DNA from: Rhizodiscina lignyota
Lineage: Eukaryota
Reading direction: 5' to 3'
Length of the DNA: 64,000 nt
NCBI GenBank assembly: GCA_010015805.1
Contig: ML978126.1
Coordinates: 1,240,001-1,304,000 of the forward strand
Positions 31,097 to 62,174 of this stretch are shown here, in pieces. The notes under the pieces are model-generated. The model had not been told where the DNA came from. It saw only the letters and a program-made list of their open reading frames with translations, and made no database searches. The position numbers and the translations under genes were made by a program. Position 1 is the first letter of the stretch. Each line of letters begins with the position of its first letter.

Positions 31097-33358
31097 ATGC
31101 CTTCACGGCGCGTACCTCCTGAGCGTCGTAAGCGGACTGAGATAAGCTGTGACCGGTGTAAATCCCGAAAGCAGAAATGTCACAAACCTTTGGATCAGCA
31201 AGCTTGTCGATACTGCCAGACCCATGGTTTCGACTGTGTTACGACACAGCCGCGCAAGAAGCGCATATTTGCTTCGGTGGAGGGTCTTGGCGCGCGGCTT
31301 ACTCTACTGGAATGCCTGGTCAAAGGTCTGGTTCCAGAAGTCGATACATCAAGCCTGGAAGAGATGCGTAATTTGGGCCAGTCTCTTGGTATTCCGCTTC
31401 CACCAACGGAGCCCCCGCCTCGGGAACGAGAGGAGAGCCCAAGTCCTGATCATCAGAGTCAGCAGGACGACGCGCCGGTTCTTCGCGATCAACAAGGCCA
31501 AACACAATACATTGGACCCGCCAGCAGTTATCTGTTCCAGATCAAGGTTCGGACTCTTTTCAATCAAGGCCAACAATTACCCAAGCCGAATCAATTCCTT
31601 CTCTTTGGCCAGAATCCAACAGAACGAGTCAGCATGAGTGATGTATCACTACTTGGAAGAGAACGAAGTACAAGCAAAAGCGTGGCACCTGAATTGTCAG
31701 AAGCTTCACCACAAACTCGAAGGCATTCAACACCCCAGGCCTCTAACGCTTCAATGCCACCTCCATCCACAGGGGCAGCGGCACCAGAGGGCTCGGATAC
31801 ACCCCCAATGTCAGACGCGTTGATAGCAGCATATTTCGAATCCGTGCAGCCTGATTTCCCACTTCTTCATGAGGCAACATTTCGAGAGGAATATGAACGA
31901 TTCTGCATTTCGCCCGAAACGTCGAGCATGGATCCTACTTGGCTTTGCATTCTGCTGTGCGTCCTGATACTTGCTCGCCGGGTTGCAAATCCAGAGACTC
32001 TCCAACTGCAAAATGCTCAAGAGATGGAGGAGAAGTGGTGGCGCGAGGTGCAAACATTGTTGCCAGGAGTCCTATTCACCTCTAGTATTTCCGCTGTTCA
32101 GGCGTTGATGCTCGCCGGACTCCATCTGCACAACACTAACCATCGAGATGCCTGTTGGACATTGACAGCTGCCGCTGTACGAATTGCGATGGCAATTGGG
32201 CTGCATCGAGAGACCAACAAGTCACTATACACGCCACTGATGCGTGAAATGCGCAAGCGCCTCTGGTGGACGTTGTACGAATTTGAGCAGATGCAAGCAT
32301 CCTCGCACGATCGGCCTAGTGCCATTGATGATTCCATCTGCTCAACTGGGACGCCGCGCGAGGCTATATTGGGAATGAGAGGAGACTTCATGCAGTACTC
32401 GAATCGTTTGGCTGTCATGCTTGGACAGGCTTGCAAAATAATACGAAATGCTGTATCATCGGATCCTCACGATGTGTACCGTGGTCCTCTCTCGCCGGCA
32501 GCCGCACTACTCAGAGACCTCATGAGATGGAAAGAGACTCTTCCGCCTCAGTTACGCCTTGAACATGCAGACGGAAAGTCACCATCTTTTCGACGGTCTG
32601 TTCTGCTTCTGCATATTCAACATCATCACGTCGTCACTGTTCTGTCGCGAAATGCTTTACTCTACATGGCAGCCAAAGTTAACGACAGCGAAATAGCCAC
32701 GTCGAAAGATACACTCTCAATGGCAGAAGTCTGCATCGATGCTGGTCGACAAGCGTGCCTCTTGCTCCTGAAACTGGATTCAATGGCTCAGTTCAACGCC
32801 GTCACGTGGTGGGACGTTTATCATCTTTACAGCTCCGCGATGATACTAGTATTAGCGATTATATACGATGTACGACAACATGGCTATAGTGATGCCGATG
32901 AGCTACCCGAATCATTAGTGGAGTCACGGTCACTGCTTCACCAGTGTGCGCAGCTTGCAATGAAGCACCTTCAGAACCCCCGAGTGCCAGGCACGATGAA
33001 TCGCTGGGCGACTGTGGTTTCGGAGATCACCACCATGACGGACGAATTTGTGCGCAGATCAACTTCTCAGGTTGACGAACAGAATGAGAATGGGACGGAG
33101 AGGGGTCTAATACTAGGGAGCGGAGCAACAGAGAACTTCTCGGGTCCTTCAATGTATGGCTTCGACCAACAACCCCATCCATATTCAAGACAGGCGATGT
33201 TTGGCGACTTCCACATCGACAATGAAGGCGCAATCCTAGCTCCTAGCAATACTATGGTCGGTTCGTCGTACTTGATTCCGAATTCTACTTTACCGTGGCA
33301 TGAGGAGCATTGGAGAGATATCGCGGGTATGTTACTTGGAGGTGATTTTGGGGTTTAA
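31097..33358 (+). CDS. Zn2Cys6 transcription factor with fungal-specific TF domain
   Basis: CDRCKSRKQKC..CRYCQTHGFDC; AVRIAMAIGLHR..RKRLWWTLY; intronless 753 aa. Confidence 0.95.
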   Translation: MPSRRVPPERRKRTEISCDRCKSRKQKCHKPLDQQACRYCQTHGFDCVTTQPRKKRIFASVEGLGARLTLLECLVKGLVPEVDTSSLEEMRNLGQSLGIPLPPTEPPPREREESPSPDHQSQQDDAPVLRDQQGQTQYIGPASSYLFQIKVRTLFNQGQQLPKPNQFLLFGQNPTERVSMSDVSLLGRERSTSKSVAPELSEASPQTRRHSTPQASNASMPPPSTGAAAPEGSDTPPMSDALIAAYFESVQPDFPLLHEATFREEYERFCISPETSSMDPTWLCILLCVLILARRVANPETLQLQNAQEMEEKWWREVQTLLPGVLFTSSISAVQALMLAGLHLHNTNHRDACWTLTAAAVRIAMAIGLHRETNKSLYTPLMREMRKRLWWTLYEFEQMQASSHDRPSAIDDSICSTGTPREAILGMRGDFMQYSNRLAVMLGQACKIIRNAVSSDPHDVYRGPLSPAAALLRDLMRWKETLPPQLRLEHADGKSPSFRRSVLLLHIQHHHVVTVLSRNALLYMAAKVNDSEIATSKDTLSMAEVCIDAGRQACLLLLKLDSMAQFNAVTWWDVYHLYSSAMILVLAIIYDVRQHGYSDADELPESLVESRSLLHQCAQLAMKHLQNPRVPGTMNRWATVVSEITTMTDEFVRRSTSQVDEQNENGTERGLILGSGATENFSGPSMYGFDQQPHPYSRQAMFGDFHIDNEGAILAPSNTMVGSSYLIPNSTLPWHEEHWRDIAGMLLGGDFGV

Positions 33359-34182: not shown

Positions 34183-36076
34183 ATGATGCGGTTTCATATC
34201 GTATTAGCAGCTCTCTTTGCCCGCGTCTCATTATGCTACCCTCCATCGAAATACGGTTCCGGTGCTCCAACTGCAAAAGTCAAGAATGGAACTTACCAAG
34301 GTTATTACGCCCCAGCCTACGACACTGACAACTTCTTGGGAATACCGTATGCGAAACCTCCTACTGAGAATCGGCGCTTCCGGGTTCCGCAATCACTTGA
34401 CAGCAGTTGGGAAGGTATTCGCGATGCCACTAAGTATGGCCCATTGTGTTATGGATATGGCTTCGATACTGTTAGTCAAGTAGGACAAGGTGGGTTTTCA
34501 GCTCGCCAGTAAGTTTAATCGAAGCTTACTCCTGCAGGCTCTACTGTCTCTGATGATTGTCTGACAATCAATGTCGTTCGTCCTGCAAATGCCAAGGGCA
34601 AGCTTCCGGTGGGCTTCTGGATGCACGGAGGTGGTCTTGTGATGGGCGGTTCGGCCGACAATCGATACAATTTGAGTTTCATCGTGGAAGAGTCTGCGAA
34701 AGCAGGAAGTCCCATCATTGGTGTCAGCATTAATTATCGTCTTTCTGCATGGGGGTTTTTGTATGGGAAGGAGGTGCAAAAATCAGGACAAACCAATCTC
34801 GGGTTCCGTGATCAACGGCTCGCGTTGCACTGGGTCCAAGAGAATATTGAAGCGTTTGGAGGTGACCCGTCCAAGGTATTCTTCTCCATATTTCTTCTCC
34901 GCGAATGGAACGGCAATGTCATTGACCGCTCTGAAGGTTACCATCTGGGGCGAGAGCAGTGGCGCAAATTCCGTTGGTGCACAACTACTTGCCTACGACG
35001 GCCGCGATGACAAGATCTTCTCCGGGGCCATTGCGGAGAGTGGTGCTCCTGCTCGTGTTAACCCCTATCCGACTCCGCAGTCATGGGAGCCCGTGTATCA
35101 GAGTTTGGCCGAAGCCGTTGGATGCAAAGGTGCTTCCGACACCCTTCAATGTCTACGCATTGTATCAGCAGAGGACTTGAACAACGCAATTAATTCGAGT
35201 GCGACAACGGGGGCGAGTTACGGGCCAGTCATCGATGGCGATTTTGTGCAAAAGGCGGCTAGCGTGCAGCTACAGAAGGGCGAATTTGTCAAAGTGCCGT
35301 ACATCATTGTACAGAATGCGGATGAGGGAACGATGTTCGGTCCTCATGGCGTCAATACGACCGAGGAGTTCTTGGCTTACCTCAAGGCGCAAGCCTTTGA
35401 TGATGAAACTTCCCAAACTCTGTCATACCTCTATCCGGACATTCCTGCAATTGGCATTCCCGGGACTTGGAAGGGGCGAGCGAATGCCAGCGCAACATAT
35501 GGCGTGCAGTACAAACGCTCTTCATCAGTCGGAGGCGACCTCTCGCAGCACGCTCCACGCCGTCTCACAACCCTGAGCTGGGCTGCGCAAAAGGTTCCAG
35601 TGTACAGCGGATACTTCGACGTGCTCGTTAATGGACAGCCGTACACTGCGGGTGCCACTCACTTCCAGGAAGTAGCATTCGTTTTCTACAACACAATGGG
35701 CTATGGCTATCCGCAGAACCTGCGTCCAAACCCTCTCGGTGGCATCCTTCGACCCCGATATCTTGCATTGGCCAAGATTATGACTAGGATGTGGATTGGA
35801 TTCATTAGCACCGGAAACCCGAACTCGGCGCTCGATGGTGTTGAAGCGGAGCACTGGCCGGCGTATACCCTTGAAGAACCTATGAATTATATGTTCGACG
35901 CAAACATGACGAGCCATCCGTTTGTGGATACGTACAGGGCCGAGGCGATAAACTATCTGATTGATATCATTATTGCGCGGGAGGGACGCAACTGTACCGG
36001 ATTGGCAGCCTGCAAAGCACCGTATGGTGTGAAGTACGGTAATACGGATGGACCGCCACCGCTTTTGCATTACTGA
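34183..36076 (+). CDS. Secreted type-B carboxylesterase/lipase
   Basis: Signal peptide, [25 protein letters not shown] oxyanion hole, GESSG nucleophile elbow, THFQEV. Introns 34490-34537 and 34876-34936. Confidence 0.93.
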
Positions 36077-37300
36077 ATAGATAGTCTATGTAGGTATGCA
36101 TCATCAGCTTCTCCTTTACAAAGATAGAATATGCTCGAGCCTTGCCCGTGATCTCCGCAGGAGAGACTCACAGGAGACTCCTTCGCAATATCGCAGGGCA
36201 CTTGCAACGTAGGGTTTATGTTCAGAGTTGATGGCAAGACTTTGAATCAAATTGCCAACTGGGCCGATATGTCCTTTACTAGATTTTCGATGAATCTCCA
36301 AAATCTTATGATAATACACATGCGATGGGTGGAAAGTGTCAAATGTTAGAGAATCATGCACTTATCAACTGGGAGAGCTGAGTGCTGAGCGCTGAGTGCC
36401 GGCTGGCCGTTGAGGGGTTGGAACATGTGTCATTTGCGAGTTCTCTTGCACAGACCAGAGTAGACGCCGCAATAACGTGATGTTCAAATCCAGAGGTAAA
36501 AGCTTAGAGTAGAATAATTTCTTTGGAGCTCATCAGCCTTTCGTGCACATAAACAGTTCCAAGGGCAATTATGAGGTGCTTGAGCGGAACCATCAACTTC
36601 GCAATTCTACAAAGCGCTGGTGAAAAAACAGTCATCGTAAACTATATTGCCAAACTTTGATAGATTACCATTGTACTTGCCAGAAGAATAGCTTCAAAGC
36701 GTTTGTCGTTCGTGTGCTTCAAAAGCTCGGCCGACGAGCAGGCTTCGAATGAGATGGTCAATCTTCATAATGCAACCACTCTAAAAGAATAAACTTAAGC
36801 CGGTAGTCTGAAAAGACGCTTACAGAGAACCTTAAATGATGTTTTATTTGCACTAATAATGTCTCGTTGACAGATTTGTTGTTGTTGCGCAAGATCTGGG
36901 AGGAGATGTTAACGGTGAATTGAACGAAGCCCATATCCCACCACATCCTCCATTCTTTCCAATACCTCTTCAAATCAAAATAGAAGCTTACTAAGCACTA
37001 GTACGGCGGTGAATTTATAGAGAGTGCAAATGTATTGCGGTTATCAATCGTGCATTGGTCTAAGAGGCAAACGTGAGTTGTAGCGATTAAGTGGTGTGGT
37101 TCAACCGAGCATCTGAGTACCATTCCTATCGACTGTACGCCCCACAGCAGGAACGAATTTGATTAGGAAAAAAAAAAGGCAAGCTCGTACTCTTATATCC
37201 CACTTAAGAGAGTATGGCCGTACTCTAAGCCAATACGTGTAAAATGATAAACCGGATACCAAAAAGAAACCCTTTCTCACGCCAGTGCTGGGAAAAGAGC

Positions 37301-37306
37301 AAAAAA
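37301..37306 (-). terminator. RNA polymerase III terminator (T6) of the tRNA-Glu gene
   Basis: TTTTTT on the minus strand, 8 nt after the discriminator base. Confidence 0.75.
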
Positions 37307-37314
37307 GATGATTA

Positions 37315-37501
37315 TTCCGACGCCGGGAATCGAACTGAATTGCTGTTAGATGATGTTGAGAGCGGGTGAGTTGGGTTAGCTTACCCCGGGCCTAGTGAAC
37401 TGTTAGTGATTGGGTGGTATTGGCGGTGAAGAAGGACCTTACCTTTCCGGTACATGCTCTGCTATGAGAGCGGAAGATCCTAGCCCCTAGACCACGTCGG
37501 A
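37315..37501 (-). tRNA. tRNA-Glu(CUC) interrupted by one canonical tRNA intron and two spliceosomal-type introns
   Basis: Exons 37465-37501, 37443-37450, 37385-37391 and 37315-37334 join to TCCGACG TG GTCT AGGGGCTA GGAT C TTCCG CT-CTC-AC CGGAA AGGC CCGGG TTCGATT CCCGG CGTCGGA A (72 nt, all stems paired). Intron 37451-37464 follows position 37. The GT-AG introns are 37392-37442 and 37335-37384. Confidence 0.9.
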
Positions 37502-38269
37502 TTGATGGGAGGGAAGCTAAGTGTGATTATAAAGTAAGCTACCAGAGTTGTAAAAGCGGCGCGGCGGGGTCTTAATCCCGAGGCCTGAGGAATCAAAATT
37601 CTAGATTTTTCACTGTCATACCTCAACAAAGTTTTACGTGATTTCTAAGCCTTATGCCGTCGCGGCTTACGCTAAGCGTAGTCAATCTAAATTATTCGGG
37701 TCTTTACCAGACAACCTTATGTCATGTACATATAGCGGTACAACGTCAACTCATCCAACATCTCACAAACATTGTACTACCAAAAAAGGATACATCAACA
37801 CACATCACAGGCTTCAGCTACCATTTTGATATGGGCCCAATAATACTTTTAAACCACATAATCCATACCTTAACGTCTTTCCGCTATCCTACAATGTTGC
37901 CCACAGATGATGTCAGTTGGGTTGTAGCGCCATCCAGAGTGCCGCAAAGGCCTGAGCGAGCTATCAAATAGCTTACTAGGCACGAACTCTACCACATATA
38001 ACAGCACAATTCCAAAGGAACTTGGGACGTGCAAAGCTCTTAAGTAGCAACCCTCTATTCCGTATATTATTCATTCGATGATACAGCTCATGTTGCACGG
38101 TATCCGAAATCAAGCCCAATCATTTGCCCTTCAAGTCATCAATTTTCATTCCGCAGCAGCTTCTTTCTATACGTAAATTTTAGAAAAGTTCTTTGAGTCT
38201 TGCACGTTTAGTCTCTATTACACGAACTGTACTTTAGATGTTGACTGTCCATTCGGAGCGTCGAGGATG

Positions 38270-38703
38270 GCAGAGATTTCGTCGCAACTTTCGAGACCCA
38301 ACAGCGATAATGCATAGACTCTATAATCAATGGAGTATACAAGTGTTTCAACGGTACGCCATTGTCATATACACGACAGAGAACGTAGAGCTAAATAGTA
38401 TCGCTCACCTCGAAGCACAAGAACTGCTCGCATTTAGGCGTTACAGTGTGCCGAGCGGCCAACTAGTTCGTCACTCTCGAGGGAGCCGACAGGCCTTACA
38501 GATTCAAGTGGGTGACGAAAAGGTTGAGTCATAGCTGCAATGTATTGAACCGTAAGGAGTATACCCTCACCAGTTGATACAGATTATGTATGCTAAAGCT
38601 GCACGTTTTAGATAAACACACTCTGGTATATATTCAATCGAGCTTTTAGAGGTGTGCTCACTCCTACTAAAGAACAAATCTTGTTCTTACTACAGCCGTT
38701 CAG
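38270..38703. repeat. Two tandem degenerate copies of a ~200-245 bp dispersed repeat (MITE-like family 2)
   Basis: CAAGTGGGTGACGAAAAGGTTGAGTC matches the reverse complements at about 51940-51963 and 62429-62454. CGCTCACCTCGAAG..TTAGGCGTTACAG matches 57981-58025. Confidence 0.7.
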
Positions 38704-40623
38704 TTATAGTTTAGAAGAGGGAGCTCTGGGCCGCCCCTCAGCTGAACTCGTCAAGATCGTGGATGGGCCTTGGACAAGGGGAGCGGTGTGCTGAGATCGG
38801 CAAGGACCTGTGGCAAAGAATGCAACCATCTCCAGACCAGGAGTGCGTGAAATCTCTACCGTTGCAACTCTGTTGCACTGTCCTGATTTGCCGTCCAAAC
38901 ATGTCCTCCATCTTGTATGAGGAATTGATCGGCCCCCAGGCCAGCAGTTCAAACACGAACATGAATTTCTCAAAGCGAACAGTCCAAGCTTCCCAACTAA
39001 AAGCTCTCTGGTGCTTACAAATGATATCAAAGACAGTATATACGGCGTCTCCGCAAAACCAAGCAATCATCTCTTCACAGCCTCAGCAGTTCGACGACCA
39101 GGCCCCAGCAGCACACGCACTACCCCGAACCTCTGAGTCCCAATCATCGGGGGGACGCTCAGCGAGTGGGAGCTCGCTGCCTGGACTTCGTCCGAGCCAA
39201 TACATTCATCTGCACGGCCGAAGCTTCAATCACATACCGAACTGCACGGGAGGAGGATACTGAGGATTGGGAGAGTGACACCCCGACACGTCGCGTTCTC
39301 ACAGAGTATCTTTCTAAGCCGTTCCCGAGACAAGGCTGGTATGCTGGGTGTGGTACGGGGCGAGACGGGCCCGAGAGGGAGAATACCCTAAACGATATCC
39401 GTGCCGTCGTAGGGTTTGGGGATGACGTACGGCGGTGCATGTGTGCGAGAGAGGGCTTTTGCACGCAGCTGCACGGCAAAGAAAGAAAATTTCGACAGTT
39501 CGAATATGGGGTTGCGGCTATGCCTGGAGCGGAAATGCAGTCGGCTCTCGGCGTCTCAGGCGTTCGAAACCCGCCGAGCCACTCACGGTGTGCAGAGCGG
39601 CATAAGTGGGAGCTGCACGAGCCTTTGCGCGTTTTAATGACAGCATCTGTTCTATTTTATGTGGAATGACTGAAAGGACTTCTCGCATGTGCAGAGGCTG
39701 TATTCGTAAAGTCAGACTAAGAATTTCCATTTCTTCCTTGGCTCTCGAGCTTCGGTTCGAGCATATGCGGGCTTTTAACGTGTAGTTTGTGTATGTAGAT
39801 TGAGCTCCGATTCAATTACATCTGGGCGCTCAACTAGCAGTTTGCACGTAGAGATCGAGCATCGCCTCAGTCAAACGCACCCACTCAGCTCCCAACTCGT
39901 GTACGAAGTTTAAGCTTCCGTGCGAGTAATCGTGAGGGCTACACGAGACTCATTATCTCACGCCCTGAGTGGCTGCGCCCCCAGCAATCCACAGAAACCG
40001 TTAGACTAGTGGGCGTCAGGAGCCTTCGGAAATAATGACCACCAGCGGCGAGGCCGACGAGTGGAGTCTGGTTGCCTGACATCCCTCAACGCCTCCCCAG
40101 GCCACTTCCCCACGCAGGATTGTATGATCAGACAGATTCAGCGGGGGTAGAGATCCCCTTCATGCTTGTGCGGGAGCTAAAAATCAAGATCGTTTTTGGA
40201 TAACAAATGCGCAGAAACGGGACAGTCGTATGATAGGTACAATAAGAATATTGTGAAACAACAAATGCATGCAGTATGTACGCGTTACGACTACGACTTG
40301 GGGGGTATACCGGAAACGACCGACTGATAAGGAAAGATATGACAATAAAGAGTGCCAAAACACACTCAAAACAAATAAGAATGATGGGGGGAGGGCCGCC
40401 CAATGCGAAGCGAAAAACTTTGAGAGAAAAGATGCCGTTCCGTTGGATCAAAAATGAAGCTCGCCCAGAACAATGCGCCAGAGATCCTCCATAATGTTCC
40501 TGTTGCAAGCAGAAAATCCATACCCAATATTCGTAACATTTCCGACACCAAAATTTTGAGCAGTCCATCCCACAATAATGCTTTGCAAATCCGTCAAAGT
40601 GTTGAAAAAGTCCCATCCCTCAG

Positions 40624-43600
40624 TCAATGCACCGCCGCGCTGCCCAGCCGCTCTCCCAATCCCACGATCGTGCTCTCCCTGTGCCCATGCGAGCTCTCCC
40701 TGCCCTGGTGCACACCCGTAAGCATATCCACACAGTCGCCCAGCCGGCTCGCCGCCTCATGCAGGAGTTCCCATCTCGTATTCAAGAACATGTCCCTCAG
40801 GAGGACCAACAGGCCCAGACACGCATTTCGATGCGGCGTGCGACTCAGATCCTCCGGGCTCTTGACTCCGCCCACGCGCTGGAGGAAGAGCTGCATATCC
40901 CGCACCCTTTCTTCGTCGCTGTTGAGCGTGTAGACGGGGGAGAGCGGGCCATCGAGCGCGAAACCGTAGGACCAGACGATCAGGGTGGCAAAGTACAGGA
41001 CCCAAGGCCGGTTGAGGAGGAAATCGTCCCGCGCCGAGTAAGTGAAGCCGTGCTGCTCGAGGCCTGTGGAGCTCTGCTGTTCAGGGCGCAATCCTGCCTC
41101 TCCGTCGGGGAGCAGGACTTGCGAGAGGAACCGCAGCGCGTAGAATGTGGCATCCCTCGCGCGAGCCGTTGGTGCCCAAACCTCTTTCATCCGCCGTTGC
41201 GCGCCCGCCGAGTCCTGCGATGTAATGCTGCGTCCAAGAAGTCTGTGCGCACCAGCGAAAATCTGGCAGTCCACAATGTCAACGTGCATCGCCATGTGAG
41301 CCAGATGGTGCAGAACCGTCCTTCCTTCGAAAATATTGTCAGGATCAAGGTCGGGGTGAGAGGTTCGGCCATGCGACGATGTCCGTTGTAGCGCGCTCGG
41401 GTTGTTCTTGAGACTGTCATCAAAATCAATCTTCCAAAAGTCAAACGCGCGAGTCAAACTTCCTCTCCACTTATCCCTTCCACCAAGCGCTTGAGTAACG
41501 CCGAGCGAAGAAACTTGCAAGTCTCTCTGGTTCATGTGCCAGCTCACGCTCAGTAACCCAGCCATTAGAATCGTACGACCGAAGGCGTTCGTGCGGACTG
41601 GTTGACCGTTGAGGGTCTTCTTCAGCCCATCAAGGAATGATGGTGACTTTACACCGTTCTGGTGATTCAGCTGTTCCGCACGTCCTACTTCTGCGCTCGA
41701 TGTCGCGGACCACATGGCTTCATCGCAGGGCAATGGCAGACGCATTTCATGAGCTACCATCACTGCTGAGTGTCCAAACATTGTCGCGTGGATCGAGTCC
41801 ATCACGAAAGCAGCAAACGCCACTCGTCGCGTCGCCTCATTCGAGATCCAATGATTCCACCAGTCGTCTGGAGTCGTAGCCCCCGAGCCGAGTGTACCGT
41901 TAATGCCAACGGAATTGTGACGCGAATCCTTTACACTTGGAGGCGAATCGATGCTCGAACGGCCGATAAGCGAAGAGCCTCTTCTCATCAGCGTCAACGT
42001 GGTCGCATGATGAATGTGTGCACGCTCGTGCAGTGGCCTTGTCGCATACATCTTCTCGAAAATCTCTAGTAAGATGAGTGACTGGAAGACCCAGAGTTTC
42101 GCAGGCGGCCTAAAGTCGGCATCTTGAAAAATCTCCCATCGAATGTTGCATGCAAAGAAATTCGCGAGTTCTGAGCACTGCTGCGTTGTTGAGAATCCGT
42201 GAGTCCTCTCCAGGCAAGACGCCCCAATTGCCATGACTGCGATCAGAAGTAGTTCAGGACAGTGGTTGGCAGAGAATGTAGGACGGTGAAGGATGGGCAT
42301 CTGCGGGTGGAAGTGAATCCAGTACGACGTAATATAATTTTGCATCATGCTGAGTCCAAGCAAATGGTGGTCATCGCGCTTCGCACCATCGAGAAGCTCG
42401 TCCTTCTTGATACTCGTCAGGTGTGTCACATCGTTGAAGCGCATTTCGAGATGTTCCAGGATATGCTGGCGTCTGTCTTCTGATAGCGACGATTCTGGAA
42501 GGTTAGCATCCAGAATACTGTTGACAGCCATTGGGTGTTGTGGAGGCATCGGTTGGGAAAAGTTACCCGAGACTTGAGGGTCGTAGTTGAAATATGGTGC
42601 CTGAAGCCCCATGTTCTGCGACTGTGCCATCATGTTATTCATGTGCGCTGAATAGGCCATGGGAGACGCTCCAGATCCAAACTGAGAATCGTTGAAAAGC
42701 CATGCCGTAAAGTCATCAGCCATTGCAAATGGCGATCGACTGATGCCCTCTCCGCCAAACATGGGCACAGAATACTGAGGCGTCATACTCTCTAGTATTT
42801 GAGCCTCTGTCGCAGCACTCATTCTCATGTCAGATTGGCCCTGATCTATTTGCACTCCGGCTGAAGGTGGATAGCTTGATTCAGTAGGGTGGGAGGTAGG
42901 TGCCATGGTCTGGAACGACGGCGGCGGCAGGGTTGAGAGAGGAGGAAAGTTTTGTTGCGACTGATACTGCGAAGGAGTCGATGTTGGATACTGCTGGTTG
43001 CCTTGTTGAGGCCCTCTTGGAAAAGGTTGCTGACTTCCAGCAGCAGTGTATGGTGACCCATTTATCGACAGCGACTGCATGTTGGAAGCCATCGTGTTCT
43101 GCCTTGTGAAAGAGCCATCAGGTCCGGGTCGACCACCCTGAGGCCCAAAGCTGCTTTGCCGTGCAAGGTTGGGATAATTTTGTTGTGGTCGGTTGCTCTC
43201 GCTCGTTCGATAGCTGTCGGTGCTAGCTGTTCGGTTCAGTGAGGTCCCCATCTGAACATCAGACCCCGGAGACTGAAGGGTTGGATCGAGAGGAGGTGAC
43301 GCTTCTGATCGGTTAGATGAGTTTGTGACACCTGACATGGGAGATTGGGTGGAGAAGGCCCGATCCGGTGGGGGTTGCTGTTGTTGCCCTGCATGAAAAG
43401 AAGCGCCTTGCCGCACGGTCGGCGAATTCGAGGGACCCATTCGCAGTGCATTTTGTTGATTGAGCGCTGCTGTAACAATAGGATTGGGGTTTTGCATAAA
43501 GTTGTCTTTGCGAAGCAGCTGAGATCCACGTGCGGTGTGTCGTTCCTTGTGCCGCGCACACAGGTCCTGACGAACAAACGACCGCTGGCAATCCGGGAAA

Positions 43601-44224
43601 TCGCATCTATAGATTTGTTTCGGATTGTCTGTTAGTTTATTAATTAGCTTCTGTTCGCGTTGTTCGTGATATTGTAGCACCATGTCAGCGGAACGGCCCC
43701 ACAGGGCCGTAGTTGCGGACGAGGCTGCACACGATTAAGTGAACCAGCAGTCGCCAACCACATGGCCGATGAGAGCTCAGAACGTCAAGCGCAATGCGCC
43801 ATTATCGATTCAAGGCTCAGTCGAGCTTTTGCGGGGTGCCTCTATGGTTGAGCGCACACAATCGCTATGAAATGGCAGGAGACTCACGATTCAACTGGTG
43901 TCGATAGAGATGTTCCGCCCTCGAATAGCTCTTCCCACATCCCTCGTGAGGACACTCAAACTTCTTGTCCAGGCCCTTCCTGCTCCTCCTCCTCTTCTTC
44001 GACGAGCCCATGCTCGTGCCCTCAGGACCACCCTGATCCATCTCCTCTTCCCCATCCTCATTCTCTCTCGTCCTCCTCCTTCCCCGCTGATCGTCTGGAG
44101 TTGAAGTCCCAGCAGCTTGGTCCATGGCTGAGGAAGCCGAGTCGAGCTTCATGTGGTGATCGTGTTGCGAGGAGCCAAAATCCGGCGCATGCGCAGAGTG
44201 CATGGTAAGAACCTGGGCGGTCAT
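40624..44224 (-). CDS. C2H2 zinc-finger transcription factor with fungal-specific TF domain (Zas1-like)
   Basis: FECPHEGCGKSYSRAEHLYRHQLN|H joined by intron 43629-43887 to NPKQIYRCDFPDCQRSFVRQDLCARHKERH. Also FHPQMPILHRPTF, EATRRVAFAAF and LPLPCDEAMW. Confidence 0.93.
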
Positions 44225-59807: not shown

Positions 59808-62174
59808 ATGGAATCGATCATGGATATGAAAAAAGCTCAAATTTCTCAAAATCGCTCGGGTGTGTCTCCACACGATTTCTCAGGATCCACGAACACGCAT
59901 ACCGACGAGGACTCAGTAACGCGAGGAATCATCATGCTTCGATCCGGAGTGTCTCTCATGGCATGCTATCATTGCAAGAGAAGGAAAATCAAGTGCGATA
60001 AAACTGGACCGCCTTGTGGCACATGCCTTCGCAATGATCAAGATTGTCGATATCCATCGTCGCCATTGAAGCCAGGCCCCAAGCTAGGCAGCCATCGAAT
60101 ACCCAAGACAGACTATGAGAAACGACATCGTCGAGAAAAAGAACATGGCGCCCGGTATGAAAGGGCCCTCTCTGATAAGCCCAGATTTGCTCCACCTGGC
60201 GCGAAGACGAACACGGAACGCAATGAGAGATTGATCCATGTATCTTCTTGGATAATACACAACTTCCACGAGCATCAATGCTACGAAGGAGATCCTCTTA
60301 GTGGCCAGTGGCATCGTTTAGAGTCGACTCCCGATATCTCGATTCATCCAGATAGCCTTAAGGCTAACAATGTTGCGTACATCTGTCATTATCTTCGGAT
60401 AACGAAGAGTTCAGCATGTGAGCTGTAAGTAATGGGGCCTCGATATATCTACAGTGCCAATCCATAAATGACTAAATAATATAGGATCGAACTGTATTTC
60501 AACAACGTGACGAATGTCTCGCTCTTTCATCGACCAACGTTCGACTGTCTCATCTACTCTGGCCTCGCTCCCGATCAAGCCTGCTGCCTGGTCGCCGCTA
60601 TGTTCTCGCATTCTGCAAGATTCTCAGACGAGCATTCGGATACTACAAGACGTTTCTACGACATAGCCTGCGAATCAATAGACAGGCAGCTGCGGAAATG
60701 TGGAAACAAATGCCCACCATTATCCTTGCTCCAAGCGATGATTCTCACAACGTTCTACGAGCTCATAATCAAGGCTGGAGGCATAGCCTGGAGGTCTCTA
60801 GGCGCTTGCATTCGCATTGCCCATGAGATGAGCCTCCATCTCGTAGACGCGAAACAGGAGACAGAAGATGAGTCTTCTGCAACATGGTGCCTTAAAGAGG
60901 AACGTCGGAGAGCATGGTGGGCTGTATGGGAGCTGGAAGTATTCGCAAGCACCATCCGTAGGGCACCATCATCTCTGAACATAAGCGATAATGTTACACT
61001 ACTCCCGATCGATGACGAGTCCTGGTTCAATTCGCGACAACGTCAGTCTTCGTATCTGCTCGAGGACCCCACGAAGAGATGGAAAGCTTTGCAAAGTTCC
61101 GGCAATCCGAGTTCCAAGGCCTGGTATCTCTTGATCAACTCGTTGCTAAACGACGCTCATAATATTAATAATCCGATAGTACCGAAGAGCATGCGTGAAA
61201 GCAGAGCGCAAAAAATGGGAGACGACGAAGAGCTCGATAATGAAGCCAAGCTCAGCACTCTTGAGAACTGCGTTGTTTGCTTTGTCATGGCATTGCCGGG
61301 CCATCTCCGTTTGCGCAGTACTGGTCTGCACCGCGACAGTGATACAACCTATCCTGATTCCAAAGAAGGCTCGAGGAGAATCATCGAAATCATGATTCAG
61401 CTAGCCAGATTCATGATATTCCACCATGGCTGCTGGGACAATCAAACACCCGAGAACACCCCCGTGTGGGCGAAATTCACCTCAGCTGCAGATGCAATCG
61501 TGGGAACCATTAGAGAAGCGTCTCACACCCATATTCAGGCCGTAAATCCGCTTGTAATAAGCACATACTGGATGGTTGCGGCAACGCAGCTGGTCCAAAA
61601 GCAGTTTGCGAGTACGCCGCAAAAGAAGCAACTTGCGCAATCCAATTACGATCTTGTTCGTCTTACCATTGAACAGTGTTGCCAGTTTTGGAAGTCGGAT
61701 GCTATTCTCATATCGAATCTGGATCGACTTGAGCGTAAGCTTGAGGACCACTCCAAGATCATCGCTAGTAAATCGACCAAAGAGGGTGGCGGGGATGATC
61801 GAAAGCTTGCTCGTCTTGATATCGCCAACAAATTACCTGCCGGAAACGCTGTTTTATCTAATTCGCACCTCGTTAGAAGGAGGCTAGGGCATGATTCGAC
61901 AGAAGGCCAGCCAGAACAAGCAGGTGCCTGTGAATCGTCTAGGCCTCGAGATGACTCTCTCTTGGATTCGTTCGATGCTTTCCTCCAGATGGACACAGCC
62001 TTCACTGACGGCGGGTCCTCATTGATGGGCAACCCCAGCGTGTCAGATTTCGACGGTGCTCTGCTGAATCATGAATTTCCCATATCCATGACAGATATCT
62101 TCTCTGGTGCTTGGCAGGACTTTCAAGCAGATGTGGGAGGTTTCCCGGTAGGGGGAGACTTCTTACCAATATGA
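59808..62174 (+). CDS. Zn2Cys6 transcription factor with fungal-specific TF domain
   Basis: CYHCKRRKIKCDKTGPPCGTCLRNDQDC, intron 60425-60484, LFHRPTF, EERRRAWWAVWE. Confidence 0.93.

Follow-up and report, generated by a model that had tools for sequence, protein, structure and literature searches.

The locus described here is a tRNA-Glu(CUC) gene on the minus strand of a 64-kb fungal window, the window being the whole stretch of DNA that was analysed. Running from 37501 (tRNA position 1) to 37315 (the discriminator A73), this gene is 187 nt long unspliced and yields a mature tRNA of 72 nt after in-silico splicing, with three introns of 14, 51 and 50 nt making up the difference of 115 nt (Table 1). 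The first is a canonical tRNA intron in the anticodon loop, which ARAGORN puts 1 nt further 3' than the position given at 37/38; it carries an AGAG that is complementary to CTCT of the anticodon loop, as is usual for ordinary eukaryotic tRNA introns. The other two, introns A and B, are of spliceosomal type and leave between them a microexon that is required for the T stem, which forms its five of five Watson-Crick pairs in ARAGORN only when these nucleotides are included. The microexon was found 50 nt upstream of the T loop by a custom split-tRNA search. A DNA contig of the public run X1 (46.5 kb) is identical to the window over 36600-38400, which argues against a local assembly error, though X1 may be the window's own source data.

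Table 1. Parts of the split tRNA-Glu(CUC) gene and its flanking signals, in window positions.
Feature	Position	Strand	Content or basis
TATA-like element TTTATAAT	37533-37526	minus	-32 to -25 from tRNA position 1
5' exon, tRNA positions 1-37	37465-37501	minus	acceptor 5' strand TCCGACG, D arm with A box, anticodon stem 5' strand, anticodon CTC; ARAGORN on in-silico spliced sequence and sequence reading
A box TGGTCTAGGGG	37494-37484	minus	uninterrupted
canonical tRNA intron, 14 nt, at 37/38	37464-37451	minus	ARAGORN
tRNA positions 38-45	37450-37443	minus	anticodon stem 3' strand and start of the variable region; AAAG precedes the donor
intron A, 51 nt, spliceosomal type	37442-37392	minus	between positions 45 and 46
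microexon GCCCGGG, 7 nt	37391-37385	minus	positions 46 and 48 and T-stem 5' strand 49-53
intron B, 50 nt, spliceosomal type	37384-37335	minus	between G53 and T54
B box AGTTCGATTCC at the 3' splice site of intron B	37336-37326	minus	10/11 match at DNA level
3' exon	37334-37315	minus	T loop, T-stem 3' strand, acceptor 3' strand CGTCGGA, discriminator A
8-nt trailer, then T6 run (37306-37301)	37301-37314	minus	Pol III terminator-like

When introns A and B are cut out by coordinates with a script, ARAGORN reports a perfect 72-nt tRNA-Glu(ctc) with all stems paired and the 14-nt intron in place, and it is only after this removal that the cloverleaf, conserved positions and anticodon of a nuclear tRNA come together. 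The anatomy of the DNA and this perfect cloverleaf of the in-silico spliced sequence are direct observations. On unspliced DNA, ARAGORN reports zero genes, Rfam at gathering thresholds gives no match across the whole window, and Rfam at E<=10 over 35500-41000 returns no tRNA and three weak unrelated matches. Our custom search, which looks for acceptor-stem, A-box and T-loop anchors at most 600 nt apart, recovered the tRNA-Glu(CUC) gene from the 64-kb window and no second one of its kind. Standard tRNA finders miss genes of such build entirely, and because of this blindness the tRNA sets of fungal genomes may be incomplete. A metagenome scan for the combination of microexon, GT-intron and T loop matched a single locus, which we rejected as a high-GC, non-tRNA chance match.

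Both spliceosomal-type introns carry a full set of splice signals, the quality of which can likewise be read directly from the DNA. Intron A begins with the donor GTAAGG, contains CACTAAC with its branch A at about 37403, 11 nt before the end of the intron, and finishes with CACTAG; intron B has the donor GTAAGC, TCTAAC with its branch A at about 37346, again 11 nt before the end, and a 3' end of TTCAG. With 51 and 50 nt, respectively, both therefore have every element by which we defined short fungal GT-AG introns of the U2 type (a GTRNG donor, a CTRAY branch site near the 3' end, YAG and a length of about 45-70 nt), and judged by these signals they are textbook examples of that class. Since the boundaries of A and B are dictated by the tRNA exons, the probability of finding splice signals there by chance can be estimated. 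With boundaries fixed, a loose definition comprising 5' splice site, branch site and YAG applies to 3 of the 127,899 segments of 51 nt on both strands of the window, one of which is intron A itself, and to 6 (A) and 5 (B) composition-preserving shuffles among 2,000,000 each; the expectation for such signals at fixed boundaries is about 2 in 100,000 segments. That two such insertions bracket exactly the 7 nt that complete the T stem is no coincidence.

Apart from these signals, neither of the two introns is a copy of the other, and a second copy of either was not found in the 64-kb window. Both contain CTAACAG (37392-37406 and 37335-37349, minus strand) and share the branch-to-acceptor distance of 11 nt, and in both the AG directly after the branch site would need to be skipped. 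A 9-mer, CCGCTCTCA, is present in intron B (37357-37365) and again in the anticodon stem-loop (37465-37473) on the minus strand. By a rough estimate, the chance expectation for this repeat within the gene is about 0.04; the repeat might hint at where the intron came from, or it might be meaningless.

The gene is accompanied by signals expected of RNA polymerase III (Pol III) transcription. A previous reading of this DNA from sequence only had listed an intact A box, a TATA-like element at about -32 to -25 and a T6 terminator after the gene, and we find all three as described. TATA-like sites occur at 0.41 per kb in the window (p of about 0.008 for a TATA-like hexamer in a given 20-nt span) and runs of at least six T at 0.14 per kb (p of about 0.003 for a start within 20 nt). 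The T6 run begins 8 nt past the discriminator, after the trailer, so that a terminator lies just downstream of a gene with no run of at least three T inside it. Because the TATA-like element and the T6 run are each unlikely to be there by chance, the locus is, or was, a genuine Pol III gene.

The internal promoter is less regular. The sequence-only reading had proposed that the third intron cuts the B box and that the G of its acceptor rebuilds it. We agree that a near-intact B box exists at the DNA level: it is made of the last two bases of intron B together with the 3' exon, the G of the acceptor AG occupies the place of G53, and position 52 is an A and not a G. However, such a rebuild is automatic, since a G will precede the following exon wherever a GT-AG intron has entered behind a G, and it is no evidence of design. 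Longer artificial spacings between A and B boxes than those seen in nature still function in vitro. The same reading was right that introns (14+51+50 nt) add 115 nt to the A-B spacing, but the resulting distance of 158 bp between the starts of the two boxes, which leaves about 146 bp between them, is outside the natural range of 32-93 bp in Saccharomyces cerevisiae, where DNA looping is invoked above 74 bp according to a 2025 review (PMC12409998). Contiguous A and B boxes at natural spacing, as judged by this yeast range, are thus not what we find here.

Composition was the basis of a further proposal, namely that the introns look selected for Pol III read-through. The descriptive part of it is accurate: the 187-nt gene has no run of three or more T anywhere, so neither GT-AG intron has more than two consecutive T, and both are C/A-rich (C 0.35 and 0.36, A 0.29 and 0.34, T 0.24 and 0.20, G 0.12 and 0.10 for A and B, respectively). 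Yet among random 101-nt stretches, 74% of those from the window are free of T>=4 and 32% of T>=3, and the corresponding values for the surrounding 36.1-40.6 kb are 66% and 23%. Eight of the 11 candidate mRNA introns of the window also have no T>=4, with the caveat that these candidates, defined by flanks of at least 60 open codons, must include some false ones since a reversed-sequence control gave 4. The absence of T runs is therefore at chance level and lends no support to Pol III, leaving the sequence-only reading partly supported overall, with a plausible architecture and an unsupported claim of selection on T runs. Other reference sets were set aside: a codon-score filter gave 2 introns, joining of ORFs gave 12 rows with duplicates, and a loose consensus scan was uninformative since its 49 candidates compare to a mean of 61.5 in shuffles. 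In composition proper, the G content of introns A and B is below that of all 11 candidate mRNA introns (minimum 0.15), and their C content is above the 0.15-0.27 of the candidates judged most credible. This composition stands out, but the sample is too small to build on.

We favour, at a probability of roughly 0.4, that the locus holds a functional nuclear tRNA-Glu(CUC) gene with a precursor that would need two different splicing machineries. This reading is preferred because none of the 72 exon positions and neither flank signal is damaged, and because it would be extraordinary for a dead target to receive two separate intron-type insertions within 30 nt. From these features we infer expression, spliceosomal splicing and the identity of the polymerase. 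Two independent introns in a single 72-nt gene with intact exons suggest a transcript that has long been exposed to splicing and rescued by it; a routinely spliced transcript could accumulate introns, as the genes of fungal U6 did. If the gene is functional, Pol III is somewhat likelier than Pol II as its polymerase, given a TATA-like element and a terminator at Pol III distances, the precedent of U6 that the spliceosome can act on Pol III transcripts, and a TATA-directed, TFIIIC-independent route that has been proposed for box-disrupted tRNA genes and demonstrated in vitro for yeast genes.

The precursor would most likely be made by Pol III from the gene's own signals, i.e., the TATA-like element at -32, the A box, the near-intact B box and the T6 run, with transcription extending from a few nucleotides upstream of 37501 to the T6 run. 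The long distance between A and B boxes might be bridged by DNA looping or bypassed by TATA-directed recruitment of TFIIIB. Fungal U6 genes with introns provide the analogy for this course. The spliceosome would then remove introns A and B and join exon 1, the 7-nt microexon and the 3' exon, and it would do so sequentially, since a microexon of this size has no room for both complexes at once. Folding and end processing would follow, and the 14-nt intron would leave the anticodon loop in the ordinary way, through the tRNA splicing endonuclease and ligase. We put forward only tentatively this full course of events, in which a Pol III pre-tRNA would have to undergo two rounds of spliceosomal splicing, across a microexon that provides one half of the T stem, and after that cleavage by the endonuclease, before it can fold. 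Several features count against the favoured reading, including the A-B distance beyond the yeast range, the A at B-box position 52 and the microexon itself, which puts the acceptor of intron A almost on top of the donor of intron B. The analogy to U6 is weakened in that U6 is special because it lies within the spliceosome's active site, a proximity that a tRNA does not have.

Comparison with known systems sets this gene apart while providing precedents for several of its parts. Full-text searches, in a collection that covers few subscription journals and in which absence is no proof, turned up no description of a tRNA gene with a spliceosomal intron. A 2025 paper on tRNA introns (PMC12530127) regards spliceosomal introns as a feature of mRNAs and further Pol II transcripts and treats them as unrelated to tRNA introns. 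The closest known systems are the mRNA-type introns in the fungal genes of U6 (and U1, U2 and U5) and in ascomycete rDNA, which are of the same type but reside in other hosts. Mentions of mRNA-type introns in U6 of Schizosaccharomyces pombe and many fungi (Tani & Ohshima 1989/1991 and Canzler et al. 2016, as cited in PMC5855946) come with the statement, in the same text, that fungal U6 genes as Pol III genes have up to four canonical spliceosomal introns. As in fungal U6, introns of about 50 nt with canonical donor, branch site and acceptor lie inside a gene with Pol III promoter elements, and more than one of them can occur per gene. A B-box-like sequence within the intron of Schizosaccharomyces U6, named in the title of Frendewey 1990 as cited in PMC5855946, may be read as an interplay between promoter boxes and introns. 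Unlike U6, the gene described here also has a protein-spliced intron, and one of its introns splits the T arm and leaves a 7-nt microexon. Moreover, its host is a tRNA and not a spliceosomal RNA, so that the origin of its introns is not accounted for by reverse splicing at the catalytic centre.

Ascomycete rDNA carries spliceosomal introns as well (Bhattacharya et al. 2000, as cited in PMC5855946), and judging from that citation it shares with our locus the presence of GT-AG introns in a non-Pol II gene of Ascomycota, but it is transcribed by Pol I into a long rRNA whereas the gene here is a Pol III-type gene for a 72-nt tRNA. In intron number and position, the locus resembles the multi-intron tRNA genes known from Cyanidioschyzon merolae (Soma et al. 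2013) and Crenarchaeota. As many as three introns can interrupt one such gene, the non-canonical sites they occupy include the variable and T arms, and A and B boxes are interrupted or pushed apart. For C. merolae, PMC3978253 proposes that an upstream TATA-like element and a downstream T stretch drive TFIIIC-independent transcription; it describes this TATA-dependent, TFIIIC-independent mode for tRNAs as proposed for the box-disrupted genes of this alga and as shown in vitro for yeast. The introns of C. merolae and Crenarchaeota are cut by the endonuclease at bulge-helix-bulge motifs, whereas introns A and B lack this motif and have spliceosomal signals instead.

That A and B are nevertheless ectopic protein-spliced introns, cut by the endonuclease at such motifs and with a coincidental GT-AG look, is highly improbable. 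The variable and T arms are indeed used by archaeal and C. merolae ectopic introns (PMC3978253), but chance would not be expected to equip both introns with a complete donor, branch site and acceptor, and the precursor does not fold more stably than its shuffles do (z = -0.87). The endonuclease route is unlikely since the motif calls for two 3-nt bulges at the exon-intron junctions and a central helix of 4 bp between them, of which 2 of 4 pairs can form at intron A and 0 of 4 at intron B; relaxing the bulges raises this to 3 of 4 at best. The strict form of the test has no positive control because the canonical intron also fails it (1 of 4 pairs).

Another potential source of short introns are introner-like elements, which have been described in Dothideomycetes. 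The window is fungal, with a fungal-specific transcription factor domain in 5 of the 8 large ORFs scanned, and the transcription factor whose gene neighbours the locus (40624-43683, minus strand) shares 88% identity with a protein named for Rhizodiscina lignyota and about 62-64% with its next matches in other Dothideomycetes. This closest relative belongs to the class known for introner-like elements, which are a lineage-specific source of new short spliceosomal introns. These elements differ in that they occur as many near-identical copies per genome, whereas introns A and B have no second copy in the 64-kb window. An introner-like element inserted into a tRNA gene is not described in the tRNA passages of two papers that name both "introner-like elements" and "tRNA".

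Such elements, or reverse splicing with recombination, could also have delivered the two insertions into a gene that no longer matters. In this alternative, an ordinary Pol III tRNA-Glu gene was hit by intron-type insertions that left it silent or with an unprocessable precursor, while other copies supply tRNA-Glu(CUC). We consider this rather unlikely, but it accounts for an A-B spacing outside the natural range, and it fits a neighbouring gene whose closest relative (88% identity) is from a class in which introner-like elements have been described. It also agrees with a location inside a 4.5-kb stretch that has no recognisable coding sequence. Since tRNA genes are usually multi-copy, the tRNA-Glu(CUC) copy at this locus could be dispensable. 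Against it stand the intact state of all 72 exon positions and of the two flank signals and the very low likelihood that a dead target would have received two separate insertions within 30 nt; furthermore, A and B are not mutual copies and no further copy of them is found in the 64-kb window.

A functional gene might alternatively be served by Pol II. The tRNA would then be part of a capped non-coding transcript, comparable to snoRNAs in their host genes, from which A and B are spliced co-transcriptionally and the tRNA is excised by RNase P and RNase Z, with the promoter boxes and the T6 run as leftovers. Recruitment of the spliceosome is normally coupled to Pol II, the gain of two introns is typical of Pol II genes, a TATA element about 30 nt upstream suits a Pol II promoter equally well, and the long A-B distance would be irrelevant. 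A further candidate intron reading GTAAGCTA...TAG lies upstream on the same strand (37976-37889). In spite of these points we judge this arrangement improbable. The flanks contain no recognisable upstream exon, coding frame or family match, though non-coding hosts leave no such trace; in addition, the T6 run and the TATA-like element are located exactly at Pol III distances, and fungal U6 demonstrates spliceosomal splicing without Pol II.

The observation of a split tRNA-Glu gene is confirmed as real and unusual. If the favoured reading of a working gene with two splicing machineries is true, the gene would provide the first case of a tRNA that cannot mature without the spliceosome, and it would mean that spliceosomal introns can colonise tRNA genes and persist there, at places that let the internal promoter boxes survive at the DNA level. 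A tRNA gene with both kinds of introns would extend the exceptions of U6 and rDNA to the most abundant class of Pol III genes. Such a gene would also be a small, naturally occurring substrate on which to study if uncapped Pol III transcripts are generally open to the spliceosome, in what way TFIIIC or TATA-directed TFIIIB deals with an internal promoter that has been stretched, and how non-coding genes gain introns.

Around the tRNA, about 4.5 kb (36100-40600) have no recognisable coding sequence, and six ORFs in the flanks have no Pfam match at E<=1. After in-silico splicing, a 94-codon stop-to-stop frame is open within 36500-37501 (minus strand); it starts inside tRNA exon 1, crosses the joined exons and continues into the sequence downstream of the gene. 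We rejected a coding gene across the spliced tRNA exons, as this frame is probably due to chance and its unspliced part has no Pfam match at E<=1. The upstream candidate intron at 37889-37976 is an 88-nt GT-AG unit about 390 nt from the tRNA, and its first 8-mer is the same as the start of intron B; coming from a scan that performed no better than shuffles, it may be a chance match, and it would matter if a Pol II host transcript exists. The 4-kb block 36001-40000, into which most of the 4.5-kb stretch falls, has the lowest GC content in the window (0.469). At larger scale, the fungal-specific transcription factor domain is the sole or main match in 4 of the 8 ORFs (3-2015, 31097-33358, 40624-43683 and 60507-62174), an unusual density for such regulators in 64 kb, and an oxoprolinase gene (26.3-30.5 kb) and a carboxylesterase fragment are located between the regulator ORFs.
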